A model generated the notes under the pieces. It was not told the DNA's origin, did no database searches, and saw nothing but the letters and a program-made list of their open reading frames with translations. Below are positions 775 to 36,971 of a stretch of 64,000 nucleotides of DNA, piece by piece. This DNA comes from an uncultured Oscillospiraceae bacterium (GTDB lineage Bacteria > Bacillota > Clostridia > Oscillospirales > Oscillospiraceae). Position 1 is the stretch's first letter, and every line of letters begins with the position of its first letter. Where the stretch lies: positions 25,918-89,917 of the forward strand of contig CANROC010000014.1 in NCBI GenBank assembly GCA_947632175.1, written 5' to 3'. A program made the translations under genes and the position numbers.

Positions 775-1285
775 AATAAGCAAAATCCAACCCCCTCCAC
801 ACGGGCGGGAACCCGCCCCTACCAAAAAAGTTTTGCGCTGCTTTGCGGCGCAATTTTTATAAAGGCGGCGCGTAGCGCCGCAACCTTATTCCCCCGACCC
901 CTTTTTCGGAAAAAGGGGTGCCGCCGCGGCGGCGGGGTATTCGAGCCCGTGTAGCGTAACGGACGCTTCCGGGAAGCGCATTTCGGAACCACCCCGGCGC
1001 TTCGCGCCACCCCGACCTGGGAGGGGCAAAATGGGTTGCGATGACAGAACGGTTCGGTTATATCGAATCCGCCCTATTTACACCGTAGGGGCGGACCCAT
1101 GTGTCCGCCCGTGCCCACGTTTCGTGACGGGAACGGTTCCGATAAAACGCCACCCGCCCCCGACACGTCAGCCCCTCCAAGGTCGTGGACAGCCGCCAAG
1201 CGGCAGGGGTGGTTCCGCGGCGACCCTTCCGGCGCTTCGCGCCACCTCCCCCACGGGGGGTAAAGGGCGGGTTTGGAACCCGCCC
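775..1285. repeat. cluster of GC-rich palindromic intergenic units (REP/MITE-like family)
   Basis: Contains hairpin units such as gtaggggcggacccatgtgtccgccc, gggcgggtttggaacccgccc and ttgcgccgc..gcggcgcaa. The same units recur at about 22.3, 30.0, 34.0, 36.6, 40.0, 45.4-46.9 and 59.5-60.4 kb. The only ORFs here are shadow ORFs. Confidence 0.6.
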
Positions 1286-2179
1286 CTACTCTGCTTGCGG
1301 TGCTTCCCCCTCGGGCTCCGCCAACGCCGCCGGGTGGAGCTTTTCCCGCTCCTCGCGGGAGAAGCGGTTGATGTACGCGCCCACGAGGAGGATGAAGAGG
1401 CAGTAGTACATCCACAGCAGGGCCACGATGACCGCGCCCAGGATGCCGTAGACGCCGAAGCGGTCGGAATAATCGAGATAGATGGAGAACCCCCAGGAGA
1501 AGACGAGCCACGCAAGCGTGGCGAACAGCGCCCCGGGCCACTGGCGGCGCAGGGAGCGCTTGCCGGTGGGCATCCACTTATAGAAGACCAGGAAGACGAA
1601 ATAGAGGAAGAGCATCATGAAAGGATAGCGGATGACCTTCACCACGCCCAGCAGGATCGTCTCCGCCAGGGTGCCGTCCAGGCTCCGGCTGATGAGGTTC
1701 AAGATCATGCCGCCGTAGACCAGGGCGCAGAGGGTCAACAGCACCGCCGCCAGGGCGATGACCATGAAGAAGCACGCCCGGAGGCGGAAGAGCAGGAAGT
1801 TTTCCCGCCGCTTCAGGTCGTAGGCCGCGTCCATGCCCCGCATCAGCGCCTGCATGGACAGCCCCGCCGTCCAGACCGTCGCCACCGCCGTGATGGACAG
1901 GGTCGTCACGGAGCTGTCGTAGATGCTGGTGATGACGCTCTCCAGAAAGGCGTAGACCTCGCCGGGGGCCACGCGGGAGATGTAGCGCAGCAACGCCTCC
2001 TCCGTCAGGGGCGTGTAGGGCAGGAGGGAGCACACAAGGCCCAGGATCGGCGCCAGCGACAGGAACAGGTAGAAGGTCGCCGCCGCCGCGAAGGTCCAGA
2101 TCTGCCGCCGGCCGATGCCGTCCAGAAAATCCACGACAACGGTGACGGCCCGCTTGAGCTTTTTCATCGAATGGTTCAT
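1286..2179 (-). CDS. YihY/BrkB family integral membrane protein
   Basis: 297 aa and multi-TM. The N-terminal ...FAAAATFYLFLSLAPIL... and the C-terminal ILLVGAYIN are typical of the YihY/virulence factor BrkB family. The start could instead be Met5 (2167). Confidence 0.85.
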   Translation of the reverse strand: MNHSMKKLKRAVTVVVDFLDGIGRRQIWTFAAAATFYLFLSLAPILGLVCSLLPYTPLTEEALLRYISRVAPGEVYAFLESVITSIYDSSVTTLSITAVATVWTAGLSMQALMRGMDAAYDLKRRENFLLFRLRACFFMVIALAAVLLTLCALVYGGMILNLISRSLDGTLAETILLGVVKVIRYPFMMLFLYFVFLVFYKWMPTGKRSLRRQWPGALFATLAWLVFSWGFSIYLDYSDRFGVYGILGAVIVALLWMYYCLFILLVGAYINRFSREEREKLHPAALAEPEGEAPQAE

Positions 2180-2209
2180 CCTTTCGTCCCGAGGGACGGA
2201 GTATTGGGA

Positions 2210-3505
2210 TCACCCGCAAAATTCCGCCACGGCGGCGGCGTACATCTGGCCGGCCAGCATAAGCTGGGCGACCTCCACGCGCTCGTCGGGCTCGTGCATC
2301 CGCACGTCCGCGCCGGGGAACTCCGCGCCGAAAGCCACGCCGCCGTCGATCTCATGGACGTAGGTGCCGCCGCCCATGGAAAACGCCTGGCCCGGCTCGC
2401 CGGTGTAGTCCTCGTAGATCCTGAGAAGCCCCCGGACGAAGTCCGAGTCCGCCGGCGTGTGGTGGGGCCTGGAGAGGGAGAGGATTTGGAGCTCCACGCC
2501 CTCCAGCGCGCGGGCGAACCCGTCCGCGATGGCGTTCCCGTCGCCGCAGACGGGGATGCGGCAGTCCACGTCGGCCCGCAGGCCGGTCTCATCGACCTTC
2601 AAAACCCCCAGATTCACCGTCAGCTCCCCGGAGAGCTCATCCCGGCAGGTGACGCCCACGGCGGACCCGTTCACGTCCCCGTGGGGGAACGCCCTTTGCA
2701 GGGCGCGGAAGACGTCGAAGCCCGGTCCCGGCAGGGCGGCGAGCTTTTCGATCATCCGCGTGGCGGCGTTGTCGCCCTCCTGGGGCAGGCTCCCGTGGGC
2801 GGCGCGGCCCACCGTCTCCAGGCGCGTGCCGTCGGACAGCACCGCCTCGCACCGGGCGGGGACGGCGTTGGGCACGGACCCGCCGGTGAGGCTCACCACG
2901 TGCAGCTCTTCGCCATCATACGCCGGGGCCGTCAGCGTGAAGTGCATCCGGCCCTTTTCCGTATTCGCCACGGGGAAGGACCCGTCCGGCGTGAACACCT
3001 TGCCCGGGACGGGGTAATGCTCCAGATACCACGCAAGATCCGAGGACCCGCACTCCTCGTCGGACCCCAGCAAAAGCTGGACCTTTCGCTTCAAAAGCCC
3101 CAGCTCCCGGGCGCACAAGATCGCCCACAGGGACACCACCGCCGGCCCCTTGTCGTCAATGACGCCTCGGCCGTAGATCCGCCCGTCCAGCTCCCGCATC
3201 TCATAGGGCGCGGTGACGGTCCACTCCCCCGCCGGGGGCACCACGTCCAGATGCGCCAGCAGCGCCAGCTCCGCCTCGCCCTCGCCGGCCTCGATGACCA
3301 GCATCCGGTCGCCGCGAATCTCGCCGGAAAGCCCGTGCTCACGGGCGATGGCCAGCGCCTCGTCCAGCGCCCGCCTGGGCCCCGGCCCGAAGGGCGCGCC
3401 GGGGGCGCTCTCCCCCCGGACGCTGTCCACCGCCACGAGCCGCCGGATATCCGCCAGAATCGCGGCGCGGTTCCTCTCAAAAAACTCCACGATACGCTGT
3501 TCCAT
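2210..3505 (-). CDS. M20 family metallo-dipeptidase (PepV/Sapep-like)
   Basis: Motifs LAHLDVVP, GRGVIDDKGP and SDEECGS are present. Start placed at ATG 3505 (MEQRIVEFFE...), preceded by GGAGGGG; the longer ORF to 3652 lacks an RBS. Confidence 0.85.
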   Translation of the reverse strand: MEQRIVEFFERNRAAILADIRRLVAVDSVRGESAPGAPFGPGPRRALDEALAIAREHGLSGEIRGDRMLVIEAGEGEAELALLAHLDVVPPAGEWTVTAPYEMRELDGRIYGRGVIDDKGPAVVSLWAILCARELGLLKRKVQLLLGSDEECGSSDLAWYLEHYPVPGKVFTPDGSFPVANTEKGRMHFTLTAPAYDGEELHVVSLTGGSVPNAVPARCEAVLSDGTRLETVGRAAHGSLPQEGDNAATRMIEKLAALPGPGFDVFRALQRAFPHGDVNGSAVGVTCRDELSGELTVNLGVLKVDETGLRADVDCRIPVCGDGNAIADGFARALEGVELQILSLSRPHHTPADSDFVRGLLRIYEDYTGEPGQAFSMGGGTYVHEIDGGVAFGAEFPGADVRMHEPDERVEVAQLMLAGQMYAAAVAEFCG

Positions 3506-3589
3506 AGTTCCCCTCCGCTGGCAAAATTTCTTTCCGACCCCATTATACCACACCCTTTTCCCCTCCGCAACCCACTTCCAGAACTTGTC

Positions 3590-3611
3590 TAAGACACGCG
3601 TAAGACACAAA
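3590..3611 (+). promoter_or_regulatory. tandem TAAGACAC motif, copy S1 (candidate recombinase arm-type or regulator site)
   Basis: taagacacGCgtaagacacaaa. It matches the 24-25 nt cores at 6362-6386 (opposite strand) and 7584-7608 with 3 mismatches. Confidence 0.4.
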
Positions 3612-3711
3612 CGCCGAAAAAATCCGCCGCCAAGTGTTCCGATTTCCGCCAAATCAAGCCTAAAATATGCCCTTTTCCCGCCTCAAAAGTTCTCCCTCCC
3701 CTCCCCCGCCG

Positions 3712-3816
3712 TTTTATTAAGGAGGAAACACTACATGAAGACTCTGAAAAAGACCCTGTGCTTGGTCTTGGCGGTAGTCATGGTAGTCGGCGTGCTGATC
3801 TTACCTGCCAGCGCGG
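3712..3816. repeat. IR-L, left arm of a perfect 105-bp inverted repeat
   Basis: Base-by-base reading shows 3712-3816 is the exact reverse complement of 10265-10369. It covers AAGGAGG, the ATG (3735) and codons 1-27 (MKTLKKTLCLVLAVVMVVGVLILPASA). Identity stops abruptly on both sides. Confidence 0.95.
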
Positions 3817-6236
3817 TCGATGCTACTGCCACGGTCGAGTACGACGAAGAGGCCGCCAACTTGCTCCAGGGCATGGGCATTCTCCTGGGCGACGAGGACG
3901 GCGTAAGCCCCGAGAAGGCGGTCACCCGCGCTCAGGCTGCCACGTTCATGGCCCGTCTGGTCGCGACCCCGGCGTTTATGGAGACCTTCTCCAGCACCAG
4001 CACTCCCTTTACGGACTGCGGCGGCGTGGCATGGGCTGTTCCGTCCATCGCTTACTGCTTTGCCCAGCACATTCTCCAAGGCACCGACAAGGGCTTTGAG
4101 CCCGATCGCGGCGTGACCGGACATGAGATGGCCAAGATGCTTCTGTGCGCCATGGGCTACGACGCGGAGAAGGAAGGCTTCATCGGCGTCACCTTTGAGA
4201 CCAACGTCGAGATCCTGGCCAACAAGACCGGCGTCAGCAAGGGCATCAAGAACCTGAAGGCTCCCCTCATTCGCGCTGACGTGATCACTATGATCAACAA
4301 TGCGCTGAATGCCAAAATGGTTTGGTACGGTGAAAACGGTAAGGCCCAGGAATACGAAGATCAAAGGACCCTTTACACCGAGACTTATAAGGGCCAGGTC
4401 CTTTACGGCGTTGTTGTAGGCAACCAGGCTACCGGCCTTAAGGGAACCAATCTTAAGAAGATTAAAAACGCAATCACCGATGATATTCTTTCTTTCGAAG
4501 ACAACCCTGTCCTCTACAACATTGAGACTGGCCTCGACATGATCGGCCACGTTCTCAAGGTCTACTACGCGGACGCTGAGACCGTTTACCTTTCCGAGGA
4601 CGCCTCTGAGCTGAAGACCGTCAAGGATGTTGCTACTGCCGATATTGAAGCCAAGATTGGCAAGAACATGCAGAAGGGCTATGTGATTAACGATTACAAC
4701 CCTGTCATGAAGAGCGGCGGCGAATGGACAGTTGATGGTACCGGCAGCTACATCGTATTCAACGGTAAGGTTGTTGCTAAGTTTGGCACCACCTCTTACA
4801 CCCTGACCAAGGTCACCGATATCGATGCCACCAAGGGAACCGTGACCCTCGATAGTACTGGCCTTACCCTTGCTGAAGGTGAAACTCTTGCTGCGCTCAG
4901 CAACAATGCCACCAAGGACATTGTTGATGAGTACGAGGGCATGAAAGAGGAAGATGTCGTCGCCTACTACAAGACCGGTACTGTCTATCACATCCTGCCT
5001 GTCCAGAAGGTCAGCGGCAAGCTCGAAGGAATCGGCGCTACGACCCTGAGCATCGGCGGCAAGGCTTACCAGCAGGCTGGCGCAGCAGTGAAGTCCTATA
5101 AGGATGCGGACAAGACCACCTCCCTCAGAACAACCGCTAACTTCACCGACTCCTATGACCTTTACATTGTTCCTGACGGAAGCAACAGCTACTACTTCGT
5201 TGCTACGCTTACGCCCGGCGCTACTGAGCCCACCCCCGCAGATGACATTGTGTACGCGGTAGCCAAGTATGCGATTACTGGTGCCGTTGATGCCTATGGC
5301 AAACCGGGTGCGACCAAGTACTATGTCCAGGCTCTTGAGCTGAATGGCGATATTCGTATTATTGAGGTTGCCAAAGCGACTTACGACGGGTTCACAGATG
5401 GGGATGGTAAGATCATGGCACTTAAGAAAGTCGTTCCCGCTGCCAGCGCGACTACTTATCCCACTTTCGAAGATCTCACAAGCAAGTGCTATAATGCAAA
5501 CGGTCCTCTTGCAGCTACTGCCATTAAGTTTAATACCAACCACTACTTCACCAGCGATGTTAAGTTTATCTATGTCAATGGCGTTCTTGGTGATTTGAAT
5601 CCTGAAATTAAAACTGGCGTTCAGGCTATTAAAGAGAACGTACCAATGGAGTACGTTGCTATCCAAGTCGGCGATACACAAAACTACACCGTCAGCGTCG
5701 TGTTCGTTGAGAAATCTTCCAAAGACGCTGCAGCTACGCCCGAACCTCCTAAAACCGTTTACAAAGAGGTCGTGTTTGCTAACGAGGCTGGCGACTCCAC
5801 CACTCAGGCTCCTTACGCCGCTTCTGCTGATACCACAGGGTCTGGTTATGTCCACACCGTTTACATTGACGGCGTGAAGACCGAAATCCTCACTGCTGAT
5901 AAGACTAAGTTGACTGGCTTCTACACGATCAGCGATAAGGTTGACCGGCTCTATACCCTTGCTAGAGCCACTGAGCAAGAGAATCTGATTGGTGGTTCGA
6001 CTGGTTACAAGGTCGAAAACATGTATAGCGGCTTGATCACTCTTGCGTCTGGCAGCAATGTCACTGACGTTCCTGTGACTGGCGCTACCGTGGTGAATCT
6101 GACAGATAAGACTGTTCCCACGAATCCTGCTGAGCTGAACGAGAAAGATACGGTCTGCATGGTTGTGACCATTGATGCGACCACCGAAGCTATCACTGGT
6201 ATTGTTACCATCTACGTGATTGCTTCCGAGCGGTAA
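3735..6236 (+). CDS. SLH-domain cell-surface (S-layer-like) protein, variant A
   Basis: 833 aa. It has a signal peptide, then N-terminal SLH-like repeats (...AVTRAQAATFMARL..., ...GFEPDRGVTGHEMAKMLLCAMGY...), then a long Thr/Val/Lys-rich beta-type region. RBS AAGGAGG. Visibly more AT-rich than its neighbours. Confidence 0.85.
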   Translation: MKTLKKTLCLVLAVVMVVGVLILPASAVDATATVEYDEEAANLLQGMGILLGDEDGVSPEKAVTRAQAATFMARLVATPAFMETFSSTSTPFTDCGGVAWAVPSIAYCFAQHILQGTDKGFEPDRGVTGHEMAKMLLCAMGYDAEKEGFIGVTFETNVEILANKTGVSKGIKNLKAPLIRADVITMINNALNAKMVWYGENGKAQEYEDQRTLYTETYKGQVLYGVVVGNQATGLKGTNLKKIKNAITDDILSFEDNPVLYNIETGLDMIGHVLKVYYADAETVYLSEDASELKTVKDVATADIEAKIGKNMQKGYVINDYNPVMKSGGEWTVDGTGSYIVFNGKVVAKFGTTSYTLTKVTDIDATKGTVTLDSTGLTLAEGETLAALSNNATKDIVDEYEGMKEEDVVAYYKTGTVYHILPVQKVSGKLEGIGATTLSIGGKAYQQAGAAVKSYKDADKTTSLRTTANFTDSYDLYIVPDGSNSYYFVATLTPGATEPTPADDIVYAVAKYAITGAVDAYGKPGATKYYVQALELNGDIRIIEVAKATYDGFTDGDGKIMALKKVVPAASATTYPTFEDLTSKCYNANGPLAATAIKFNTNHYFTSDVKFIYVNGVLGDLNPEIKTGVQAIKENVPMEYVAIQVGDTQNYTVSVVFVEKSSKDAAATPEPPKTVYKEVVFANEAGDSTTQAPYAASADTTGSGYVHTVYIDGVKTEILTADKTKLTGFYTISDKVDRLYTLARATEQENLIGGSTGYKVENMYSGLITLASGSNVTDVPVTGATVVNLTDKTVPTNPAELNEKDTVCMVVTIDATTEAITGIVTIYVIASER

Positions 6237-6272
6237 AGCATTCAGCCCATCATTACCCCCTAACACGCACCT

Positions 6273-6301
6273 CCGGCCCCCGGGTTCATCCCGGGGGCCG
6301 G
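6273..6301 (+). terminator. intrinsic terminator of SLH variant A
   Basis: ccggcccccggg-ttcatc-ccgggggccgg followed by atttttgccttttt. Confidence 0.8.
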
Positions 6302-6361
6302 ATTTTTGCCTTTTTGGTGTGTTTCCACGTGGAAACACAGCTCGCGTCGGAACCTGTCGAA

Positions 6362-6386
6362 ATTTGTGTCTTACGTGTGTCTTACC
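6362..6386 (-). promoter_or_regulatory. tandem TAAGACAC motif, copy S2
   Basis: The reverse complement reads ggtaagacacacgtaagacacaaat, identical to 7584-7608. It abuts the recombinase stop codon. Confidence 0.4.
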
Positions 6387-6391
6387 GTTTT

Positions 6392-7477
6392 TCAACCCAC
6401 GGCGTAGGCGACCTTGTCTATCTCGCGGAGGAGCTCCGGGAGGTCCTTGTGGGTGTAGCGGTCGGTGACGTCGCGCTGGGAGTGGCCGACGATGAAGCGG
6501 AGGGCGCCGGGGCGGACGCCGGCGGTGTCCAGGGCGGAGACAAAGGTGTGGCGCGTGTCGTGGGGCGTGTGGGGGAAGCCCAGGGCGGCGGTGACCCGGT
6601 CGAACCAGCCGTATTTGTAGCTGGCGTAGGTCATGGGCTCCCCGTCGCGGTCGGTGAGGAGCGACTGCTCCCCGGCGCGGGCGAGCAGCGCGGCCATGAC
6701 GGGGACGATCTCCCGGTGGAGGGGGACGCGCCGGCGGGCGGCGCGGGTCTTGGTGCCCCGGAGGTTGATGCACCGGCGGTCCATGTCCACGTCCTCCCGC
6801 CGCAGGGTCAGCAGCTCCCCGACCCGCAGGCCGGTGTAGAGCAGCAGGAGCACCGACCCCAGAAGCCCCAGCCCCCGGAAGCGCGGCGCCTCCCCCGGCA
6901 CCTCCGCCCCGGACCGCCACAGCCGCCAGAGGGCGTCGATCTCCTCCGGCGTGAAGACCCGCCGGGGCGTGTCGGAGGCCTCGGCGGTGAGCTCCACGAA
7001 CTGGCTCCAGTCCCGGTCCACGATGTTGCGCCCCATGCCCCAGCGGTAGATCATGTGCATGAGCGACCGGACCTTGGACTGGTACCCCCGGCTGCGGTCC
7101 ATGCGGTTGATGACGTTCTGGAGCTGCGTCACCCGCAGGTCCCGCAGGGGCACGTCCCAGATGGACCGGCAGAAGACCATGGCGCAGCTCATGACCTTGC
7201 CGGTGGATGGGAATTTGAGGTAGTAGTCCGGGCTCCACTGTAAGTAGGCCTCCCGGAAGGTCACGCGGCGCGCGTCGGTGTCGTAGGGCGAGCGGTTATA
7301 CTGCGCCAGGGCCATCATGGCCTCCGACCGCGTGGCGTAGTAGCCGATGGTTGCGAAGCTCTGGAGCGGCCTTTGCCCCTCGCGCTCCGACCACCCCACC
7401 GTCACCCGCGCCCGATAGGGCCGCCGCCGCGCCCCCGGCAGCTTCGTCACGCCGCCGTACCCGTTTGGATTTTTCAT
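6392..7477 (-). CDS. tyrosine-type site-specific recombinase/integrase with N-terminal arm-binding-type domain
   Basis: Catalytic signature is intact: ..YTGLRVGEL.., HTPHDTRHTF (HxxR), GHSQRDVTDRYTH (Tyr). The N-terminus (GGVTKLPGARRRPYRARVTVGW...IGYYATRSEA) resembles the integrase Arm DNA-binding fold. Start is ATG 7477 after GGGAGG; the track start at 7483 is a TTG. Confidence 0.9.
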   Translation of the reverse strand: MKNPNGYGGVTKLPGARRRPYRARVTVGWSEREGQRPLQSFATIGYYATRSEAMMALAQYNRSPYDTDARRVTFREAYLQWSPDYYLKFPSTGKVMSCAMVFCRSIWDVPLRDLRVTQLQNVINRMDRSRGYQSKVRSLMHMIYRWGMGRNIVDRDWSQFVELTAEASDTPRRVFTPEEIDALWRLWRSGAEVPGEAPRFRGLGLLGSVLLLLYTGLRVGELLTLRREDVDMDRRCINLRGTKTRAARRRVPLHREIVPVMAALLARAGEQSLLTDRDGEPMTYASYKYGWFDRVTAALGFPHTPHDTRHTFVSALDTAGVRPGALRFIVGHSQRDVTDRYTHKDLPELLREIDKVAYAVG

Positions 7478-7583
7478 GGTCAAACCTCCCTAATAAAGAT
7501 GTAAGGAGATTATCCCACTTTTCCCCCGCCGATAGTATCCCCAATCGCGGAAGTTTTAGTCTGGAAGAGTGTGGTTTTTTCGG

Positions 7584-7608
7584 GGTAAGACACACGTAAG
7601 ACACAAAT
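7584..7608 (+). promoter_or_regulatory. tandem TAAGACAC motif, copy S3
   Basis: ggtaagacacacgtaagacacaaat, about 100 bp upstream of the recombinase start. Confidence 0.4.
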
Positions 7609-7668
7609 ACCGACAACCTCCGGCGCTGTCCCGGTTGCCGCGTGGAAACACATATGAACACAAAAAAT

Positions 7669-7698
7669 CCGGCCCCCGGGGATGAACCCGGGGGCCGG
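7669..7698 (-). terminator. intrinsic terminator of SLH variant B
   Basis: Inverted copy of the hairpin at 6273-6301, with the loop also inverted. It is followed on the minus strand by atttttt. Confidence 0.8.
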
Positions 7699-7721
7699 AA
7701 TGGGTGTTGCTGGATTATTGG

Positions 7722-10346
7722 TTAGTCTTTGATTTCCTCGAGGCCAGTGATGACGATAAGGGTGATGTAATCCACGCCATTCACCTTTTCGGTGTAGTAG
7801 CTGACCGTAACCTTATTCTTTGTCAGGTCAGTGGGAAGCGCGCCGACAGTGGGCCATACACCAGCCTTGTGGGCGTCAACAACGACACAAGGCGAACCAA
7901 CTTTAACGGGATCAGCCTCATCTTCACCCTCTGCATTCTTAAACAGGATGTAGGAAGCAGTAGCGAAAGATATTACCTTATTCTTATTCGTGCATGCGAC
8001 AGTGGCAACGGATTTAAGCTTGCCGTCCTTGAGGGTAAGCTTATACACCTGCCCCAAGTTGCTCGTGCCAGCACTAACTGCAGTTGTAATCGCAGCGGCA
8101 TCGGTGTTGTCGGCAACATAGGTCTCGACCTTACCGCCAACGATGAAGCTGAAAGACGTACCGGTGAGGGTCTGCTCGCCCTGGCCAACAAAGATCGCAA
8201 GATCAGTCGGCTCGAGAGTTTTCTCGTCCGATGCGGACGTACCCTTAAGAATCACATAGATATCGGTGGCCATCTTCTCATTCTTGCTGTCGGTGAGGAC
8301 GATTGCCTTATCAACATTGGTACCAGTCAACGCCGGGAACTGAGTATAGCCGGTATACTGAGTGGGAGTGAACTTGTCATCAAGGTGATCCGCGTCAGTA
8401 CCAGACGTGTGAGTAAACACGGTGAGCTTGGTCGTCTCGGACAGATAGAGCGCAGTACCACCAATGGTCATTGTAAGAGCGCCCTTTGTATAATCAGAAA
8501 CGGTCTGGCTCGTCACAGCCTCGCCGAGCACCATCTCACCAGCGGCATTCTCCTCATACTTATAGAAGCCAGCTTCAAACGTGTTCTTGTTCGAGCCAAT
8601 CTCGTTAGTGTTGGCCTGGTGCCCATCTTTGTCGGCGAGATAGTACTTGACACCAGTAGCATCTGCGACACTGTAGAGCGGAAGATTCACGCTGGAAACC
8701 TTACCGGTAGCAAGATCCATCACAACCGCAACAGCCATAGCGGGCTTCTCGGGAGAACCTGCAGTCACGTTGCCGAAGATATCAGTCTTGGCATCCACGG
8801 CATCTTCGTGCTCCTGCTCTTTGTAAGAAAGAAGGTAGGTGTACTTCACTACAGAAGTGGTCTCAGGAGCCTTCTCGGCCGCAACATTGATGATGTTCCC
8901 GTTGTTGTCCAGATAGAAGTTATACTTGGTATCGGCACTGACATTCAATTCGACAATGTCAAGTGTGTCTTTCACGGGAGTCGCAACGGCCTTGTATATC
9001 TTGCTGGTATCGCCGTTGATACGAATGTAGGTATTTGTATCGACATCCGTGCCCTTGCCGGTGATAGTGCCATTGAGGACGGTAGCCACATAGGGCTTGC
9101 CAACAACGACAGTCTCGTCCTTCGCATTCTTGCCGGTGTTGTAAACAACGATATCGCCCTTCTTGGCCTCAATCTTGACGGTCAACGCGGTTGTGCCAGA
9201 ACCCTCAAGGGTCAGAACGCCGTCCTTGTAGTTGGCTGTAGCGCCCTCAGTCACAACAGGTTTATACTTGTCATTAACACGAACGATGTAGTAGACATCG
9301 GTCTTTGCAGTACCGCCTTCCGGTATCTCCTTGACGGTATACACGGTGGTAGTGCTGCCGATAGCGCAGGCAGACGAACCTTTGTCATTGGTAAAAGGCT
9401 GAGCCTTATACTCACTACCAAACGGCGTGCTATTGGAGTAGTAAGACGGAACACCGTCCACAAAGTACTTCGCGGGCATATCGGCCGGAGTGGCCTTGTC
9501 GCCCTTGATGTCCTTGAGAATGTCGCCAAAGGTCTTGGCAGTGTTGTAGGTCTTCACAGCCGTGGCATAGGTGGTGTAGACAGCCTTATCGCCCACCGTA
9601 ACGACGTATGTCTCGGGGACACCGATCTCGTTGTGACCAACCTCGGCTTCCTCAACATCGTAGCCGTTCTGGCTGTTCAGGGTGAGGGGTTTGTTGTCAG
9701 CGCCGGTGCGGTCAGCAAGCTTGCCCAGATTGTCGTAGCCGACCATGGTGGCGTTCAGGGCGTTGTAGGCCATCTGAGCCATGTTGTCGCGGGTGAGGTC
9801 CTCGTCATACTCGAAGTCCTCGATGCCGTCGTCCAGCTTCACGGTCAGGGCGCGGCTGATGACGTTGACATCCCAAAGATTGCCGATGTAGCCCTCGGTC
9901 ACGGCATCGTAGCCCAGCGCGCAGAGGAGCATCTTGGCAAACTCGGTGCCGGTGACGTTGTCATTGGGCTCAAAGCCCTTCTCGGTGCCGTTGATGATGC
10001 CCTGGGAAGCGGCGAAAGCAATGAACCCAGACGCCCAGTCAACGGTCTTGTCGCCGTCCACATCGGCAAAACCGGTCTTGCCGGCGGGATACCGCGCGGC
10101 AATGGCGGGGGTCTGCAGCAGCTTGGTGATGACCGTCGCCGCCTCAGCGCGGCTCAGGGTATCGCCGGGACGGAACCCCTCCGCGTCGCCCGTGAGGATC
10201 TTGAGAGCTGTCAGCACTTCAACAGCCTCTTTGTGGGTGATCTTCGCGTCGTCCTCGTAAGTCGCCGCGCTGGCAGGTAAGATCAGCACGCCGACTACCA
10301 TGACTACCGCCAAGACCAAGCACAGGGTCTTTTTCAGAGTCTTCAT
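7722..10346 (-). CDS. SLH-domain cell-surface (S-layer-like) protein, variant B
   Basis: 874 aa. The first 27 codons are identical at DNA level to variant A, and the sequence diverges after that. SLH-like repeats (..TLSRAEAATVITKLL.., ..GFEPNDNVTGTEFAKMLLCALGY..). Start is ATG 10346 after AAGGAGG. Confidence 0.85.
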   Translation of the reverse strand: MKTLKKTLCLVLAVVMVVGVLILPASAATYEDDAKITHKEAVEVLTALKILTGDAEGFRPGDTLSRAEAATVITKLLQTPAIAARYPAGKTGFADVDGDKTVDWASGFIAFAASQGIINGTEKGFEPNDNVTGTEFAKMLLCALGYDAVTEGYIGNLWDVNVISRALTVKLDDGIEDFEYDEDLTRDNMAQMAYNALNATMVGYDNLGKLADRTGADNKPLTLNSQNGYDVEEAEVGHNEIGVPETYVVTVGDKAVYTTYATAVKTYNTAKTFGDILKDIKGDKATPADMPAKYFVDGVPSYYSNSTPFGSEYKAQPFTNDKGSSACAIGSTTTVYTVKEIPEGGTAKTDVYYIVRVNDKYKPVVTEGATANYKDGVLTLEGSGTTALTVKIEAKKGDIVVYNTGKNAKDETVVVGKPYVATVLNGTITGKGTDVDTNTYIRINGDTSKIYKAVATPVKDTLDIVELNVSADTKYNFYLDNNGNIINVAAEKAPETTSVVKYTYLLSYKEQEHEDAVDAKTDIFGNVTAGSPEKPAMAVAVVMDLATGKVSSVNLPLYSVADATGVKYYLADKDGHQANTNEIGSNKNTFEAGFYKYEENAAGEMVLGEAVTSQTVSDYTKGALTMTIGGTALYLSETTKLTVFTHTSGTDADHLDDKFTPTQYTGYTQFPALTGTNVDKAIVLTDSKNEKMATDIYVILKGTSASDEKTLEPTDLAIFVGQGEQTLTGTSFSFIVGGKVETYVADNTDAAAITTAVSAGTSNLGQVYKLTLKDGKLKSVATVACTNKNKVISFATASYILFKNAEGEDEADPVKVGSPCVVVDAHKAGVWPTVGALPTDLTKNKVTVSYYTEKVNGVDYITLIVITGLEEIKD

Positions 10347-10369
10347 GTAGTGTTTCCTCCTTAATAAAA
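10265..10369. repeat. IR-R, right arm of the perfect 105-bp inverted repeat
   Basis: Exact reverse complement of 3712-3816. Confidence 0.95.
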
Positions 10370-10549
10370 ATTGTTGATGAAATTTTCGCCCGTTACATGA
10401 ACCGGACTGTTTATTATGTAAACGCCGGACCGGAGCCGGTCGGCATATACACCGTGGTTTTTGCTCGTTACGCCCTTTTGACTTTACCGCCGGGTCGTTT
10501 GTTCCCTTTTTATTCACGAAAAATTTTAGAAATTTTTCTAAAAGGAGGA

Positions 10550-10597
10550 GTACGGCGGAGATCCGCGGTTGGGCGGTTCCGAGAACCTCCGCCGTAC
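10550..10597 (-). terminator. terminator-like hairpin inside the variant-B leader (possible attenuator)
   Basis: On the minus strand: gtacggcggag...ctccgccgtac (11-bp stem) followed by tcctcctttt. It lies about 135 nt downstream of the predicted TSS and about 200 nt upstream of the ATG. Confidence 0.35.
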
Positions 10598-10738
10598 ACT
10601 TGCATAATGAAGACTGTCACCGCCCCGCGTGCTTTTCGGAGCGGATCTGTCCGACCCTGCCTTGAGCTGCGGCCCCTGGGGCCTGTCCGGGGGGTCCTCC
10701 CGGCCGAAAACCGGGCGTACCTTGCGGACGTTGGATAT

Positions 10739-10767
10739 ATTCTAGCACATGGCGCGGCCAATGTCAA
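10739..10767 (-). promoter_or_regulatory. sigma-A type promoter upstream of IR-R (expression site)
   Basis: Minus strand TTGACA (10762-10767), 17 nt spacer, tgcTAGAAT (10739-10744) with an extended -10 TG. This predicts a leader of about 385 nt. Confidence 0.6.
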
Positions 10768-11012
10768 CATTTTGGGGAAAATAAGTTACAAAATCGTAAC
10801 CTGGCCGGAAGTGCCGGAAATTCCTAGAGCGCCAAGGGGTTTGGGGTTTGGCTCATTTTTCCTCGCGGAAAAAATTTTAAAAATGTAACAAAAAATATCA
10901 GAAATTTTTTGAAACGCGTCGGATTTTTCCCCGAGAGACGAACCCCAATATAGTCATTTTACTCGTTTTACACGAATTTGCAAGTCTTTTTTTCAAATTT
11001 TTTGGAGTTTTT

Positions 11013-11318
11013 TTATTTGAGGATCTTGATGGCGCCGATGACCGGCAGGGGCTTCTCCTCGCCGTTGACGGCGCTGACGAGGCCGAGGATGGCGAAGACG
11101 AGGACCGCCACGCCGCCCAGGGACCCGACGATGCCGCCCAGCACGGGGATGATCAGGGAGATGACGGTGGAGGCGATGCTGACGCAAAGGGCCCCCAGCC
11201 AAATGACCATGGCCTGGTTGATGTGGAATTTGGAGGCGTTCATGTCGCCGGCGACGATGGCGATGATGAGGCCGATCCAGGTGATGTACGCGACGATGTC
11301 AGTGGTCTTCTTGTTCAT
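11013..11318 (-). CDS. small integral membrane protein (3 predicted TM helices), function unknown
   Basis: 101 aa and hydrophobic. RBS AAAGGAG 7 nt before the ATG. Confidence 0.6.
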   Translation of the reverse strand: MNKKTTDIVAYITWIGLIIAIVAGDMNASKFHINQAMVIWLGALCVSIASTVISLIIPVLGGIVGSLGGVAVLVFAILGLVSAVNGEEKPLPVIGAIKILK

Positions 11319-11368
11319 GGTGATCGCTCCTTTAATAAATAGTTATTTGACGCGCCCGTGCGCGGGGT

Positions 11369-14047
11369 TTACCGGAGAACGGCGCCCAGATTTTTCTCCA
11401 GGGCGGCGAGGACGGCCTTGACCGTCTCGTCGGCGTGGTCGTCGGTGAGGGTGCCCTCGTCGGACCGGAGGACCAGGGAATAGGCGGTGGAGCGCTTGCC
11501 CTCCGGGATGCCGGGGCCCTCGTAGATGTCGAAGAGGGAGACGGATTTGAGGTACTGCCCGCCGTTTTCGCGGATGCAGCGCTCGATCTGGCCGACGGTG
11601 ACCTCATGGGGCGCGATGAGGGCCAGGTCGCGGGTGACGGAGGGGTACTTGGGCAGGGGCCGGTACTCCGGGTCCGGGCCCTGGCTTTGGAGGAGCGCCC
11701 CGAAGTCCAGCTCCGCGCAGTACGCTTCCGCGTCCACGCCGTAGTTTTTGGCAACAACGGGGTGGATCTGGCCCAGCACGCCGATGACGCGCTCCCCGGC
11801 ATAGACCGTGGCGCACCGGCCGGGATGGTAGGAGGGGTTATCCGAGCAGGGCTCGAAAACCACGTCCTCGGCGCGGATGCCCCGCAAAACAGCCTCAACG
11901 ACGCCCTTCAGGTCGTAGAAATCCACGCCCTCGCCGTAAGCGCCCAGCGTGAGGACCCGGTTTTCTTTGGCAAGGTCGCTGTCCGGGTCGGGGAGGTAGA
12001 CGCGGCCCAGCTCGTAAAGGCGCACGTCCTTATTCCTGTAATGATAGTTGCGCGCCAGAATCTCCAGCATGGACGGGAGGGCGGAGGTGCGCATGATGGA
12101 GGTGTCCTCCCCCAGGGGGTTCAAAATTTTGAAGGACTTGCGGCGGGGGTCGTCGGCGGCCCAGCCGATCTTGTCGTAGGCGGTGGGGGAGATGAAGGAG
12201 TAGGTGATGATCTCGTCAAAACCGGCGTCGCGGCACAGCGCCCCCAGCTTATTCTCCAGCTTCTGCTCCCGGTTGTAGCCGCCCCGCGTGGTCTGGCCGC
12301 GCATGAGGGTCACGGGGATGTTGTTGTAGCCGTGGAACCGGGCGACCTCCTCCGCCAGGTCCGCCATGCGCCGCACGTCGCCCCGGAAGCTGGGGACGGT
12401 GACGGTCCGGCCCTCCACCTCAAAGTCCAGCTTGCGGAGGATGCGGACCATCTCGTCCTCGGGAACGTCGGTGCCTAAAAGGGCGTTGATCTTCTCCGGC
12501 TCCAGCTCCATGCGGTAGGGCTCCGGCGCGCGGTTGCGGATGTCGATGACGCCGTCCAGGACCTCGCCGGCGCCCAGCATCTCCACCAGCTCGCAGGCGC
12601 GGTCCACGGCGGGGAGGGTATTTTCGATGTCCAGGCCCTTTTCGAATTTGGCGCTGGCCTCGGTGCGCATCCCCAGGGCCAGAGCGCCCTTGCGGATGCA
12701 GGTCCCGTCAAAGTTGGCCGATTCGAAGACCACGTCGGCGGTGTCCGCCACGATCTCACTGTTGAGGCCGCCCATGATGCCGGCAAGGCCCACGGCGCGG
12801 GTGTCGTCGGCGATGACCAGGTGGTTTTGGTTCAGCTTGCGCACGTTGCCGTCCAGGGTGGTGAGCTCCTCGCCGGCCCGGGCCCTGCGGACCACGATCT
12901 TGCCGCCCTTGACGTAGCGGTAATCGAAGGCGTGCATGGGCTGGCCGTACTCCAGCATCACGTAGTTGGTGATGTCCACGATGTTGTTGATGGGCCGCAC
13001 GCCCATGGAGCGAAGGCGCTCCCGCATCCACTTGGGGGAGGGGGCGATCTTCACGTTGCGCACCATCCGGGCGGTGTAGCGCGGGCAGAGGTCCGGGTCC
13101 GGCGTCTCCACGGTCAGCAAATCGGTAAGCACGCCGGGTCCGCCGCCCTTGACCACGGGGGTATGGAGCGTCAAAGGTTTGTCAAATGTCGCCGCCGCCT
13201 CCCGGGCAAGGCCGATGACACTGAGGCAGTCCGGGCGGTTGGGGGTGATCTCAAACTCCACCACGCTGTCGTCGGCGTTGATGACGGGCTTGATGTCGTC
13301 GCCGGGTTTGCAGTCCTCCCGGAGGACGAAGATGCCGTCCTCAATGCAGTGGGGGAACTCCCGCTGCTCGGCGCGCAGGTCGGCGAGGGTGCAGACGGCG
13401 TTTGTCTTGGTGTTGTAGGCCACCATGTCCCCGGCGTGGACGTTCTGGCAGGCGGTGGTCACCGTCGCGGCGGGGTCCAGCGTCAGGGTGAAGGTGCCGT
13501 CGGGGTTCGGGGCGCAGTCGGTGACCTTGGCGGCCACGACCGGTCCAAACACCTTGTCCCCCGGCTGGATGTCCGCGGGGATGCTGGGCTTTTCGGGGTC
13601 AATGGGGTGGTAGTCATTCAAAAGGGCGGCGGCGGTGATGACGGCATAGGGGAAATCCCGCTCGTCCAGGCCCAATTCCTTGAGGGAGCAGAGCATCCCG
13701 TTGGACTTGACGCCCCGGAGGTTGCCCTTTTCGATTTTTTTCCCGCCGGGGAGTGTGGATTTGTGGAGCGCCACGGGCACCAGGTCGCCCACGTGGACGT
13801 TCCACGCGCCGGTGACGATCTGCACGGGCTCGTCCCGGCCCACGTCCAGCTGACAGACCCACATATGGTCGGAGTTGGGGTGCTTCTCCATGGACACGAT
13901 GCGCCCCACGACCACGTTGCTGATCTCCGCCCCCAGGTCCTCCGTCGTCTCCACCTTGGAGCCGGAGAGGGTCATGGCCTCGGCAAATTCCCGGTCGGAG
14001 GCGTCCACCTTGACGAACTCATTGAGCCATTTTCTGCTTAAATTCAT
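11369..14047 (-). CDS. pheT: phenylalanine--tRNA ligase beta subunit
   Basis: MNLSRKWLNEFV... N-terminus with tRNA-binding, B3/4, B5 and FDX-ACB regions. It follows pheS. Confidence 0.95.
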   Translation of the reverse strand: MNLSRKWLNEFVKVDASDREFAEAMTLSGSKVETTEDLGAEISNVVVGRIVSMEKHPNSDHMWVCQLDVGRDEPVQIVTGAWNVHVGDLVPVALHKSTLPGGKKIEKGNLRGVKSNGMLCSLKELGLDERDFPYAVITAAALLNDYHPIDPEKPSIPADIQPGDKVFGPVVAAKVTDCAPNPDGTFTLTLDPAATVTTACQNVHAGDMVAYNTKTNAVCTLADLRAEQREFPHCIEDGIFVLREDCKPGDDIKPVINADDSVVEFEITPNRPDCLSVIGLAREAAATFDKPLTLHTPVVKGGGPGVLTDLLTVETPDPDLCPRYTARMVRNVKIAPSPKWMRERLRSMGVRPINNIVDITNYVMLEYGQPMHAFDYRYVKGGKIVVRRARAGEELTTLDGNVRKLNQNHLVIADDTRAVGLAGIMGGLNSEIVADTADVVFESANFDGTCIRKGALALGMRTEASAKFEKGLDIENTLPAVDRACELVEMLGAGEVLDGVIDIRNRAPEPYRMELEPEKINALLGTDVPEDEMVRILRKLDFEVEGRTVTVPSFRGDVRRMADLAEEVARFHGYNNIPVTLMRGQTTRGGYNREQKLENKLGALCRDAGFDEIITYSFISPTAYDKIGWAADDPRRKSFKILNPLGEDTSIMRTSALPSMLEILARNYHYRNKDVRLYELGRVYLPDPDSDLAKENRVLTLGAYGEGVDFYDLKGVVEAVLRGIRAEDVVFEPCSDNPSYHPGRCATVYAGERVIGVLGQIHPVVAKNYGVDAEAYCAELDFGALLQSQGPDPEYRPLPKYPSVTRDLALIAPHEVTVGQIERCIRENGGQYLKSVSLFDIYEGPGIPEGKRSTAYSLVLRSDEGTLTDDHADETVKAVLAALEKNLGAVLR

Positions 14048-14059
14048 GGGGGCACCTCC

Positions 14060-15085
14060 TTAAAACTGCTCCAAAAAGCGCACGTCATTTTCAAAAATGA
14101 GCCGCAGGTCGTCGATCTTGAACCGCCGCATGGCCAGCCTCTCCAGCCCGAAGCCGAAGGCCCAGCCGGACCAGACGTCGGGGTCGATGCCGGCCATCTC
14201 TAAGACGTGCGGATGGATCATCCCCGCACCCAGAAGCTCGATCCAGCCCTCGCCCTTGCAGGTGGGACAGCCCACGCCGCCGCACTTGTGGCACTGGACG
14301 TCCATCTCGCAGCTGGGCTCCGTGAAGGGGAAGTGATGGGGGCGGAAGCGGGTCTGGGTGTCCTCGCCGTAGAGGCTCTTGACCACGGTATTGAGAGTGC
14401 CCTTGAGGTCGGCCATGGTGACACCCTTATCTATGACCATGCCCTCCACCTGGTGGAACATGGGGGAGTGGGTGGCGTCCACCTCGTCCTTGCGGTAGAC
14501 CCGGCCGGGGGCGACCATGCGGATGGGCAGGGGCAGGGTGTCCATGGCCCGGACCTGCATGGGGCTCGTCTGCGAGCGCAGCATGACCTTCTCCTCCCGG
14601 TCAAAGTAGAAGGTGTCGGACCAGTCGCGGCTGGGGTGGCCCTCCTCGGCGTTGAGGCGATCAAAGTTGAGCTCCGCAAGCTCGATCTCCGGGCCGTCCA
14701 CCACGGTAAAGCCCATGCCGATGAAGATCTCCTTCATCTCGTCCAGGGCGATATACATGGGATGCCGGTGGCCCACCTTCACGCTCTTGCCGGGGACGGT
14801 GACGTCCACGGCCTCGGCGCGCAGGCGGTGCTCCAGAGCGCGGGCTTCCACCTCACGCTTGGCCTCGGCAAGCTTTTCCTCGATGGCGGCGCGGACCTCG
14901 TTGGCCAGCTGCCCCATCTTGGGCCGCTCCTCGGCGGGCAGACCGCCCATCTGCTTCAAAATGGCGGTCATCTCGCCCTTCTTCCCCAGATACCGCACCC
15001 GCAGCTCCTCCAGCTCGGCGGCGCTCGTCACAGCGGAGAGCTTCGCCAACGCCTCCTCGCGGATCTTTGCCAATTGTTCTCTCAT
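14060..15085 (-). CDS. pheS: phenylalanine--tRNA ligase alpha subunit
   Basis: 341 aa with class II aaRS motifs (..HPMY.., ..GRVYRKDEVDATHSPMFHQVEG.., GFGLERLAM). Confidence 0.96.
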   Translation of the reverse strand: MREQLAKIREEALAKLSAVTSAAELEELRVRYLGKKGEMTAILKQMGGLPAEERPKMGQLANEVRAAIEEKLAEAKREVEARALEHRLRAEAVDVTVPGKSVKVGHRHPMYIALDEMKEIFIGMGFTVVDGPEIELAELNFDRLNAEEGHPSRDWSDTFYFDREEKVMLRSQTSPMQVRAMDTLPLPIRMVAPGRVYRKDEVDATHSPMFHQVEGMVIDKGVTMADLKGTLNTVVKSLYGEDTQTRFRPHHFPFTEPSCEMDVQCHKCGGVGCPTCKGEGWIELLGAGMIHPHVLEMAGIDPDVWSGWAFGFGLERLAMRRFKIDDLRLIFENDVRFLEQF

Positions 15086-29945: not shown

Positions 29946-30215
29946 TCTTCGCTGTGCGTATTATACCACAAATCGAACGATTTGTCAAGTATTTTTTAGT
30001 ATTCGTAAGCAAAAATATGTAGTGGTCGCCGTCCCCGGCGGCCCCTACGGCGTTGATGGAACGTAATTTGGAAAATGTAGGGGCGGACCCATGTGTCCGC
30101 CCGTCCCCCGTCCCCGCCGCGCGGGCAAATTTAAAAAATGCGCCGCGAAGCGGCGCATCCTTTTTAAGCCCCCTCCTCGCAGGGCGGGACAGGGGGCAGC
30201 GAAAGGGGGGAATGA
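29946..30215. repeat. repeat cluster including promoter-bearing module copy a (minus strand)
   Basis: Minus strand TTGACA (29983-29988), 17 nt spacer, TATAAT (29960-29965), next to hairpin units gtggtcgccgtccccggcggccc and gtaggggcggacccatgtgtccgccc. Confidence 0.65.
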
Positions 30216-36909: not shown

Positions 36910-36971
36910 ATTACCGGTTTTTTGCGAGACAAAAAATTTTTAAAATTTTTATACGAGGAAGGATCACACAA

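Follow-up and report, generated by a model that had tools for sequence, protein, structure and literature searches.

We identified in an uncultured Oscillospiraceae bacterium a locus that probably operates as a two-cassette surface-protein switch, in which a tyrosine recombinase would invert a 6.4-kb segment and thereby swap the SLH gene that stands behind a fixed promoter. In the window (the whole 64-kb stretch of DNA that was analysed), two convergent SLH genes, A and B, start inside the arms of an inverted repeat and enclose the recombinase gene. The elements of the locus are as follows:
3712-3816, plus strand: left arm of the inverted repeat, silent side, 105/105 complementary to 10265-10369; it holds a T-rich lead-in, the ribosome-binding site AAGGAGG, the ATG at 3735 and signal peptide codons 1-27
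3735-6236, plus strand: gene A, SLH surface protein of 833 aa, on the promoter-less (silent) side in this assembly
6272-6302, plus strand: terminator hairpin of gene A
6392-7477, minus strand: tyrosine recombinase of 361 aa, between the convergent genes; match to PF00589 (Phage_integrase), E = 1e-20
7489-7485: ribosome-binding site GGAGG of the recombinase gene, with a -10-like GATAAT at 7514-7509
7668-7699, minus strand: terminator hairpin of gene B
7722-10346, minus strand: gene B, SLH surface protein of 874 aa, behind the conserved promoter and leader in this assembly
10265-10369, minus strand: right arm of the inverted repeat, expression side, with the same content as the left arm and the ATG at 10346
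10347-10732, minus strand: fixed, structured 5' leader of about 386 nt
10739-10767, minus strand: expression-site promoter TTGACA-17-TG-TAGAAT, 11/12 matches

The arms are 105 nt long, 100% complementary and separated by 6448 nt; in BLAST the repeat grows to 109 nt at 99%. The next-best inverted repeats of the region are all at most 86% complementary, so the repeat is far beyond chance. Each arm starts 23 nt upstream of its ATG (3735 on the plus strand, 10346 on the minus strand) and ends at the first base of codon 28, directly past the signal-peptidase site ...LPASA. A preliminary description of this DNA had proposed a perfect 105-bp repeat with just these limits and an internal AAGGAGG, and all three points held in both arms. 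It had also described the two convergent genes as distant paralogs: the A and B proteins are 44% identical over roughly their first 250 residues, beyond which we found no recognisable similarity. SLH was the only Pfam family found in either protein and the SLH domain of Bacillus anthracis Sap their sole match to a solved structure. The signal peptide, N-terminal SLH repeats and large body give both the layout of SLH-anchored proteins of the Sap/EA1 type. Both terminator hairpins are strong and, together with the strong promoter, long structured leader and strong ribosome-binding site, they hint at a crystalline surface layer and very high expression.

The flanks of the segment differ. The promoter of the right (pheT) flank had been described as TTGACA-17-TAGAAT followed by a leader of about 385 nt; both are present, with a TG element added. 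The pattern AATGTTGACA...TGTGnTAnAAT is kept in 10 species, and in these species promoter and leader are conserved on one flank only. Two leader segments, 10615-10596 (AGTCTTCATTATGCAAGTGT) and 10550-10541 (CTCCTCCTTT), have their complements inside the repeat, at the ribosome-binding site and around the start codon. The leader folds with a z of -4.2, and its consensus fold has 24 invariant long-range pairs and a hairpin with 3 compensatory pairs. In agreement with the earlier failure to find a good promoter on the left flank, we found no promoter-like site there reading towards gene A; inspection of this flank by eye gave a weak TTCCGA-18-TAAAAT match, which makes low-level expression of gene A possible. 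With a promoter on the pheT side only, expression would differ between the two orientations, and the parked gene would be silent.

The inversion itself was visible in a sister lineage represented by two assemblies (L093 and L094). These carry the same M20-peptidase and pheT flanks, collinear with the window at 93.8% identity up to position 3820 and at 92.5% from position 10264, and the whole segment between the repeats, recombinase included, is inverted. A B-like gene (45.8% over 806 aa) lies on the M20 side and an A-like gene (48.6% over 875 aa) behind the leader. Read base by base, the L093 junctions join the silent flank to the repeat and the B-like gene, and the leader to the repeat and the A-like gene; promoter and leader remain with the pheT flank in both orientations. 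The L093 repeat (109 nt at 100%) has two lineage-specific substitutions, shared by both arms. The search for the opposite orientation in related assemblies, which the preliminary description had proposed as a check, was thus positive, with both reciprocal junctions in L093/L094, and the comparison supports its proposal of an in-frame recombination between the arms that flips the segment and swaps the SLH protein behind the fixed promoter. Since the segment has the opposite orientation in the sister lineage, its inversion would determine which of the two genes stands behind the one strong promoter. Judged by sequence comparison, the whole segment has been inverted between the sister lineages, with breakpoints inside the repeat. 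As in a programmed inversion switch, inverted repeats bracket a segment with a recombinase gene inside, and both orientations exist, here between sister lineages (window versus L093/L094). In at least four pairs of sister species, the recombinase gene points in opposite directions with respect to the flanks: L020/L021 (96.6% recombinase identity), L028/L029 (95.5%), L017/L018 and L014/L015. The repeat-spanning assemblies of one species had one orientation and were of the same strain (99.9-100% identity). We infer that the inversion occurs reversibly within populations.

In the switch that we propose, the pheT side would be a fixed expression site, whose strong sigma-70-type promoter and structured leader of about 386 nt drive whichever SLH gene is joined to them. 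Recombination within the 105-bp repeat would flip the 6.4-kb segment with both gene bodies and the recombinase gene, preserving the frame and the secretion signal and bringing an entirely different mature protein behind the promoter. The other gene copy would be parked intact beside the gene for the M20 peptidase, on a flank in which we saw no promoter of this kind. The recombinase probably acts at a core site inside 44 invariant nucleotides of the repeat, and may use AAGACAC double motifs as accessory binding sites.

About 19 Oscillospiraceae species, almost all of them represented by rabbit-gut MAGs, share this layout, and the order core, SLH gene, recombinase, SLH gene, core was read in the about 17 species with enough flank. 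Throughout the clade the recombinase gene lies between two SLH genes, apart from one species (L002/L013) that has the recombinase, a single SLH gene and no leader nearby. In one genome (L026) both flanks seem to be of the silent type. Short-read assemblies break at the repeats, as in L006, L011, L012, L016 and L025. Alignment of the arms across species delimited two nested elements:
3718-3761, plus strand: 44-nt core TAAGGAGGAAACACTACATGAAGACTCTGAA(A/G)AAGACCCTGTGC, with a mirror copy at 10320-10363 on the minus strand
3750-3769, plus strand: candidate crossover dyad AAGACC - CTGTGCTT - GGTCTT, taken from the core alignment, with a mirror at 10312-10331

The core is essentially invariant in an alignment of 29 arms from 17 species, even though the recombinase proteins of the core-bearing species are just 55-74% identical. 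Six of its 8 degenerate codons are invariant, against 12% of comparable codons in the recombinase gene (invariant degenerate residues at which the same codon was kept). The core on the silent flank is as invariant as that of the expressed arm. Some of this invariance may reflect pairing of the RNA with the leader and the demands of translation and secretion rather than recombinase binding. The AAGACC/GGTCTT dyad is a candidate for the point of crossover. Its spacer has a sole variable base (T/C/A), identical between both arms in 10/12 genomes; the exceptions are L020 and L026, whose arms mismatch inside the candidate spacer.

The recombinase had been described as intact, which its PF00589 match and catalytic residues bear out: R218, K243, H306, R309, H332 and Y341 are all present and invariant across 23 homologues. 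Its best structural match was Tn1549 Int (6en2, E = 7e-10), and full-length lambda Int (1z1b) aligned with it over 359 columns. The AlphaFold model of the N-terminus has strands at residues 8-12, 21-32 and 35-47 and a helix at 50-62 (pLDDT about 83-88), a predicted three-stranded sheet plus helix resembling an arm-binding domain. A Pfam search of the protein gave no arm-domain match, and in NCBIfam it fell below every cut-off, Xer models included. The gene is not within a mobile element: its neighbours on either side are chromosomal SLH genes, the bracketing repeats have inverted rather than direct orientation, and the pheT and M20 flanks are syntenic in most species with enough flank. The protein looks like a domesticated lambda/Tn1549-type integrase and is most likely the enzyme of the inversion; from strict co-occurrence we infer that it catalyzes the reaction.

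Candidate accessory sites for such an enzyme were found at three places:
3590-3611, plus strand: double motif TAAGACAC-GCG-TAAGACAC-AAA, in the flank of the silent side, some 100 nt beyond the left arm
7586-7607, plus strand: second copy, about 110 nt upstream of the recombinase start codon
6363-6384, minus strand: third copy, just past the recombinase stop codon and inverted relative to 7586-7607

Three copies compare with 0 expected. In the species examined, the motif has the form AA(G/T)ACAC-N4-AAGACAC and lies on the silent flank at a distance of about 125 nt from the core; it is full in some species and half or degenerate in others, and is kept even where the neighbouring gene differs. 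Most species have it upstream of the recombinase promoter (several as a half motif), and only some species have a copy downstream of the recombinase gene. The AAGACAC double motif may be an arm-type site of the recombinase.

The inversion and swap could be real and yet proceed by RecA-dependent homologous recombination, with the recombinase a passenger or engaged in another role. The perfect 105-bp repeat is a RecA substrate too, and the length of the repeat differs greatly from species to species (about 96 nt to at least 725 nt); however, the homology has its outer boundary at roughly the same position in every species, and even the arm on the silent flank has an invariant 44-nt core. Also in line with RecA, the two genes of a genome mostly group with each other in their N-terminal modules, indicating gene conversion, and all 20 differences between L004 and L005 fall inside the repeat, with 10 sites altered alike in both arms. 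These symmetric differences could instead be an assembler artefact in which bubbles between near-identical arms were collapsed onto one path. The recombinase gene, moreover, keeps its place between SLH genes throughout the clade, with the one exception given above, and all its catalytic residues, and we regard a purely RecA-driven inversion as unlikely. We give still less credence to the absence of any ongoing switch, that is, to a rare historical rearrangement between paralogues that left the recombinase as a mobile-element remnant and a repeat whose identity is maintained by selection acting on the translation start region, on the signal peptide and on pairing with the leader. The single orientation in the spanning assemblies of one species (the same strain), the predicted pairing of the leader with the ribosome-binding site and start codon, and the membership of the recombinase in a mobile-element integrase family would all fit such a history. 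Yet the four or more changes of orientation among sister species, together with the resolved window/L093 case, are too many for rare accidents, and the silent-side arm, which by comparison of the flanks has no adjacent leader, is invariant like the expressed one. In no species is the parked gene truncated; all are full-length open reading frames, which argues for their occasional expression. We found no mobile-element genes or direct-repeat ends around the recombinase gene, and the bracketing repeats occur in this clade only: recombinase relatives at 39% identity or less had none.

It is likewise very improbable that the recombinase mainly captures and replaces cassettes between the core and the AAGACAC motif, in the manner of an integron, with inversion as a by-product. 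Cassette exchange would account for gene bodies that, even where the flanks of two lineages are about 93% identical, show no relationship or no more than 49% identity, and for the homology between the window and its nearest relative (L012), which begins inside one motif copy and ends inside the other, the two flanking the recombinase gene. Motif and core also have an AAGAC box in common, but the two are too dissimilar for obvious partner sites. The 64-kb window holds no circular or tandem cassettes and no third core, and homologous recombination anchored on the conserved 5' module and the recombinase module explains the replacement equally well. We therefore retain inversion by the embedded recombinase as the preferred reading. 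In a more tentative extension of it, about which we are more doubtful than confident, the clade would have domesticated a lambda/Tn916-type integrase, with its arm-binding domain and AAGACAC arm sites, as an invertase for S-layer antigenic variation. The core site would be part of the sequence that serves for ribosome binding, translation start and the signal peptide; its 44 nt would also pair with a fixed translation-masking leader, and the locus would be a landing pad for very rapid cassette replacement.

The two slp genes of Lactobacillus acidophilus are reported (Boot et al. 1996) to be oriented towards one another on a segment of roughly 6 kb and to have their 5' ends in common. Active and silent S-layer genes (slpA/slpB) are interchanged there by inversion of a chromosomal segment at a fixed promoter (PMC3666127, PMC7858073). 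As in our locus, two S-layer genes occupy one invertible segment with the promoter outside (PMC3666127), but the Lactobacillus proteins are without SLH domains, no dedicated recombinase is mentioned in PMC3666127 and PMC7858073, whereas a lambda-type one lies inside the segment here, and our locus has conserved candidate accessory motifs and is found in about 19 Oscillospiraceae species. In Mycoplasma agalactiae, the tyrosine recombinase Xer1 swaps vpma genes behind a single promoter, with related systems in M. bovis (vsp) and M. pulmonis (vsa/HvsR) (PMC2268961). The likeness extends to a locus-encoded tyrosine recombinase, a unique promoter and, on the reading proposed here, recombination sites in conserved 5' regions and inversions that bring silent genes to the promoter. 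However, vpma-type systems are lipoprotein families of at least 6 genes with the recombinase gene beside the locus, outside the invertible segment, whereas here there are two SLH cassettes and the site overlaps the ribosome-binding site, start codon and signal peptide. Consistent with its scores below the NCBIfam cut-offs of the Xer models, our recombinase is not closely related to Xer1-type enzymes. In the sap system of Campylobacter fetus, the promoter is on the invertible element and inversion is RecA-dependent. Like sap, our locus would vary S-layer antigens by inversion via conserved 5' regions of paralogous genes; in contrast, promoter and leader are fixed outside the segment here and a dedicated recombinase is present. 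The heterobivalent lambda Int and Tn916/Tn1549 Int integrate and excise mobile elements, whereas the sites here are inverted and lie in two chromosomal genes. Clostridioides difficile cwpV/RecV is alike in that a tyrosine recombinase governs a cell-wall protein in a Firmicute, but a small invertible leader element turns one gene on or off there, without exchange of gene bodies (PMC2784873). Milman et al. 2023 (PMC9881135, Table 1) list SLH-domain proteins as enriched among the targets of predicted programmed inversions. The gene-altering inversions in the available portion of that paper (Bacteroides SusC/SusD swaps, hsdS shufflons) likewise have repeats inside coding sequences and an adjoining recombinase; for SLH proteins that portion gives a statistical enrichment, without description of an SLH locus or of this clade, core, leader or motif. 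As the logic matches that of L. acidophilus slpA/slpB and Mycoplasma vpma/vsa, the kind of system is already known. The novelty claimed in the preliminary description was thus too strong, as the principle is documented for slpA/slpB and vpma/Xer1; this SLH version itself is undescribed.

S-layer and SLH-anchored proteins are the outermost face that many gut Firmicutes present to phages, the immune system and neighbours. To our knowledge, there is hardly any information on the ways in which uncultured Oscillospiraceae vary it. The locus offers a clean, conserved and testable example, with a 44-nt site, one recombinase, two cassettes and one promoter. The mature proteins of the two cassettes are unrelated and have been replaced even between lineages with about 93% identical flanks, a pattern that suggests strong pressure to diversify. 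The recombinase seems to have been recruited as an invertase from integrases that possess an arm-binding domain; since the classical tyrosine invertases are not known to have such a domain, it would be unusual, and it could become a compact tool. The orientation of the segment in a MAG is not to be taken as fixed. With this locus, expression-site switching in the style of Lactobacillus and Mycoplasma would extend to SLH proteins in Clostridia.

The 6.4-kb segment that carries both SLH surface-protein genes and the tyrosine recombinase gene is bounded by a single inverted repeat, which grows from 105 to 109 nt at 99% identity in BLAST; no further inverted pair above 86% was found in the region. 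Genes A and B are convergent within it, each ending in a strong terminator hairpin.

Features of the SLH locus (window coordinates)
3712-3816 and 10265-10369: left and right arms of the inverted repeat, 105 nt, 100% complementary, 6448 nt apart
3735-6236, + strand: gene A, 833 aa, SLH domains
10346-7722, - strand: gene B, 874 aa, SLH domains
7477-6392, - strand: tyrosine recombinase gene, 361 aa, located between genes A and B
10767-10739, - strand: expression-site promoter, TTGACA-17-TAGAAT preceded by TG, matching 11/12 positions
3590-3611, 7586-7607 and 6363-6384: three copies of the 22-nt double motif, found nowhere else in the 64 kb

Each arm contains AAGGAGG and an ATG placed 23 nt inside its outer end (3735 on the + strand, 10346 on the - strand), and extends through codon 27 (...LPASA). 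The proteins encoded by A and B share 44% identity across the first ~250 residues and none beyond; their sole solved-structure match is the SLH domain of Bacillus anthracis Sap, and neither matched an NCBIfam family. The perfect repeat, this arm anatomy and the distant paralogy of the two products had all been claimed in the preliminary description, which also placed an intact recombinase between the arms and a TTGACA-17-TAGAAT promoter on the right flank, with no good promoter towards gene A on the left. All of these claims were upheld, and no promoter-like site reading into gene A was found on the left flank, which it has in common with the M20 peptidase gene. The 3' untranslated region of gene A also holds a perfect 20-nt palindrome, GTGTTTCCACGTGGAAACAC (6319-6338), whose half-site GGAAACAC is present in the 44-nt core of the repeat; gene B has a degenerate copy of the palindrome in its 3' region (about 7640-7655).

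In 10 species the pheT side keeps its promoter (AATGTTGACA...TGTGnTAnAAT) and a leader in which long blocks are invariant. Just upstream of the -35 box lies a palindrome, GTTAC-N6-GTAAC (10785-10800, - strand), kept in 8/10 species (missing from the relatives' loci L024 and L028), which from its sequence looks like an operator for a regulator. Compared with shuffled sequences, the leader has a much better fold (z = -4.2). The consensus fold of seven species joins its 5' part (AGUCUUCA..UGUA.GUGU and CUCCUCCUU) to the start-codon region and ribosome-binding site inside the repeat through 24 invariant long-range pairs, and these enclose a hairpin with three compensatory pairs. Because the long-range pairs never vary, covariation neither backs nor contradicts them. 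The fixed leader carries AGTCTTCATTATGCAAGTGT and CTCCTCCTTT (10541-10615, - strand), both invariant in 10 species and complementary to the start-codon region and ribosome-binding site in the repeat (10330-10363, - strand). The resulting long-range helix between leader and repeat is predicted to mask translation initiation. Such pairing could explain part of the core conservation in the expressed arm but cannot account for the equally conserved arm on the silent flank. Rfam returned no family for the leader at the gathering or E-value threshold, the lone match being a chance miRNA.

Does the segment invert, exchanging the SLH gene behind this fixed promoter? The recombinase gene is co-directional with the leader-side gene in the window and in the related loci L015, L018, L021, L027, L028 and L030, and opposite to it in L004, L014, L017, L023, L024 and L029 and probably in L020 and L022. 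On the recombinase tree, sister species differ in this orientation at least four times, including the pairs L020/L021 (96.6% identity) and L028/L029 (95.5%). These counts alone cannot tell whether the whole segment inverted or only the recombinase gene flipped between the motif copies beside it, because different species lack orthologous SLH gene bodies. The two readings do diverge in a sister lineage (contigs L093 and L094) reached by searching with gene B and then with its 46%-identical homologue P0123. Positions 1-2663 of L093 are collinear with window 1145-3820 (93.8%) and positions 9381-13664 with window 10264-14478 (about 92.5%), and everything in between aligns reversed: the recombinase gene and the 5' parts of B and A. 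Along their full length, the gene on the M20 peptidase side is B-like (45.8% over 806 aa) and the gene behind the leader is A-like (48.6% over 875 aa). A flip confined to the recombinase gene is therefore rejected for the window and L093, since both the A-like and the B-like gene have swapped sides along with it.

Read base by base, the L093 junctions join the silent flank, the repeat and the B-like gene on one side and the leader, the repeat and the A-like gene on the other. These are the two reciprocal junctions foreseen in the preliminary description, and its proposed comparison with related assemblies thus uncovered, in L093 and L094, the whole segment inverted. The L093 repeat spans 109 nt at 100%, and its two substitutions relative to the window are common to both arms. 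The breakpoints fall inside the repeat, because collinear homology reaches precisely to its inner ends and no further. Comparison between lineages supports the inversion interpretation, and inversion of the segment by way of the repeat is, in our view, very probable. A separate reading, raised by BLAST of L028 against L029, had the N-terminal modules staying with the flanks; it was not borne out by the tree, in which the modules mostly cluster by genome. Within single species, the repeat-spanning assemblies show one orientation but come from the same strain (L004/L005 at 99.9%; L004 identical to L006 and L008, and L009 to L010, at 100%). Similarly, L001 is 100% identical to the window and therefore not independent. 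Exact-protein matches to gene B and the M20 peptidase, sought for the same strain in the other orientation, were found in one place each.

Each arm contains a 44-nt core, TAAGGAGGAAACACTACATGAAGACTCTGAAGAAGACCCTGTGC, essentially invariant in 29 arms from 17 species; the recombinase proteins of the core-bearing species are just 55-74% identical. Among degenerate codons, 6/8 in the core are unchanged, versus 13/112 at invariant residues in the recombinase gene. On the outer side, homology stops at roughly one point in all species, in a T-rich stretch immediately before TAAGGAGG, and its inner edge varies among species from about +40 to beyond +700. A plausible, if loosely held, candidate for the crossover core is AAGACC-CTGTGCTT-GGTCTT (3750-3769). 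Its one variable base lies in the spacer, where most genomes carry matching bases in their two arms (A/A in L004, C/C in L018 and L028), with L020 and L026 as the exceptions. We found no third core or additional cassettes in the 64-kb window. Furthermore, the core had 0 matches in JGI metagenome contigs, and the clade therefore appears absent from that collection.

All of the catalytic residues of the recombinase (R218, K243, H306, R309, H332 and Y341) are in place. Close homologues number ~27 at ≥53% identity, after which identity falls to about 40%. A scan of one genome per species found the recombinase at ≥55% identity in 19 species, all of them uncultured Oscillospiraceae and 18/19 represented by rabbit-gut ('Lapin') MAGs. 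Wherever the flanking sequence suffices, the order core - SLH gene - recombinase - SLH gene - core is constant, and in most species the locus lies between pheT and the M20 peptidase gene. The association of repeat and recombinase is specific to the clade, because no inverted repeats were found around distant relatives (≤39%; Phascolarctobacterium, Bacillaceae and others). The protein scored under every NCBIfam cut-off, and Pfam at E ≤ 1 gave no arm-binding domain family. In both sequence and predicted structure it comes closest to Tn1549 Int, phage Brujita Int and lambda Int, and its AlphaFold model (mean pLDDT 82.5) begins with a three-stranded sheet and then a helix. The arm-binding domains of the lambda and Tn916 integrases are built in this way; classical tyrosine invertases such as FimB/E and RecV are not known to have such a domain.

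Candidate accessory sites are provided by the double motif AA(G/T)ACAC-N4-AAGACAC. The silent flank is poorly conserved except for this motif, ~125 nt from the core, which is half or degenerate in several species. It is retained beside genes other than that of the M20 peptidase: purE (L014), an M23 peptidase gene (L020), a LacI-family gene (L026) and an aminotransferase gene (L002). Since it survives these other neighbours, the motif is part of the switch and not of the peptidase promoter. Another copy lies upstream of the recombinase promoter in most species (as a half motif in several) and a third downstream of the recombinase gene in some species only. Homology between the close relative L012 (636-1864) and window 7604-6377 starts and stops inside these recombinase-flanking copies, so the recombinase module forms a separate conserved block with unrelated gene bodies on either side. 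Taken with the conserved double motif, the N-terminal fold in the model suggests that a heterobivalent integrase, with its accessory sites, has been domesticated.

Several related loci depart from this plan. In one species (L002/L013, 7103-12609), a lone SLH gene and a recombinase gene lie directly beside the M20 peptidase gene, with no second cassette, no pheT or leader nearby and an upstream flank of the silent type with a half motif. This arrangement resembles a locus that has degenerated or been split. L026 (6135-6288, 15575-15635) seems to have silent-type flanks on both sides, and in L028 (1-5557) and L024 (8097-14432) the leader flank adjoins a homologue of window 36912-39566 rather than pheT. 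These varied contexts suggest larger rearrangements or further core-bearing loci elsewhere in the genomes concerned. L004 and L005 are 99.9% identical across 19.2 kb, and all 20 differences lie within 725-nt repeat arms, with ten sites altered alike in both arms (L004 6153-6240 and 14164-14251). Either very recent gene conversion or assembly-bubble collapse would produce this symmetry, and we set these differences aside as evidence because bubble collapse explains them equally well.

The window holds other repeats as well. A long array of 69-nt (23-residue) repeats (20394-21625) is followed by repeated units that are perhaps SLH-like (22023-22282); if so, this would be another repeat-rich surface protein gene. 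No copy of the core was found there. G+C-rich intergenic families (GCCCCCTCCTCGTAGGAGGGGGGCAGGGGGG...; 22553, 45545-46872, 59513-60390, 29953-30146, 36603-36757) are dispersed over the window in both direct and inverted orientation, with copies reaching 230 nt at 93%, and are perhaps REP- or MITE-like elements. Two adjacent paralogous stretches ~1.18 kb apart (16662-18601) have as counterparts in L002 two adjacent Peptidase_U32 genes. Between pheT and the expression-site promoter lies a small 101-aa gene (11013-11318, - strand), conserved in L093 and with a faint MamF_MmsF match on record.

In Campylobacter fetus sap, the promoter lies within the invertible element, unlike in the window locus. 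In C. difficile cwpV the switch is a small one in the leader (PMC2784873), again unlike this locus. The logic of the window locus is that of slpA/slpB in Lactobacillus acidophilus, where 0.3% of chromosomes in culture were found to carry the silent gene at the expression site (PMC3666127) and where switching was observed in mouse ileum (PMC7858073). A further match is the vpma/Xer1 system of Mycoplasma agalactiae, in which a unique promoter is combined with a tyrosine recombinase encoded at the locus and with sites in a conserved 5' region (PMC2268961). SLH-domain proteins are 2.3-fold enriched among the inversion targets predicted by Milman et al., and the passage giving this enrichment describes no locus (PMC9881135). 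The kind of mechanism is already known; the locus, clade, core and recombinase represent a variant for which we found no description in the literature. It is likely that these bacteria change the SLH protein they express by means of the embedded recombinase.
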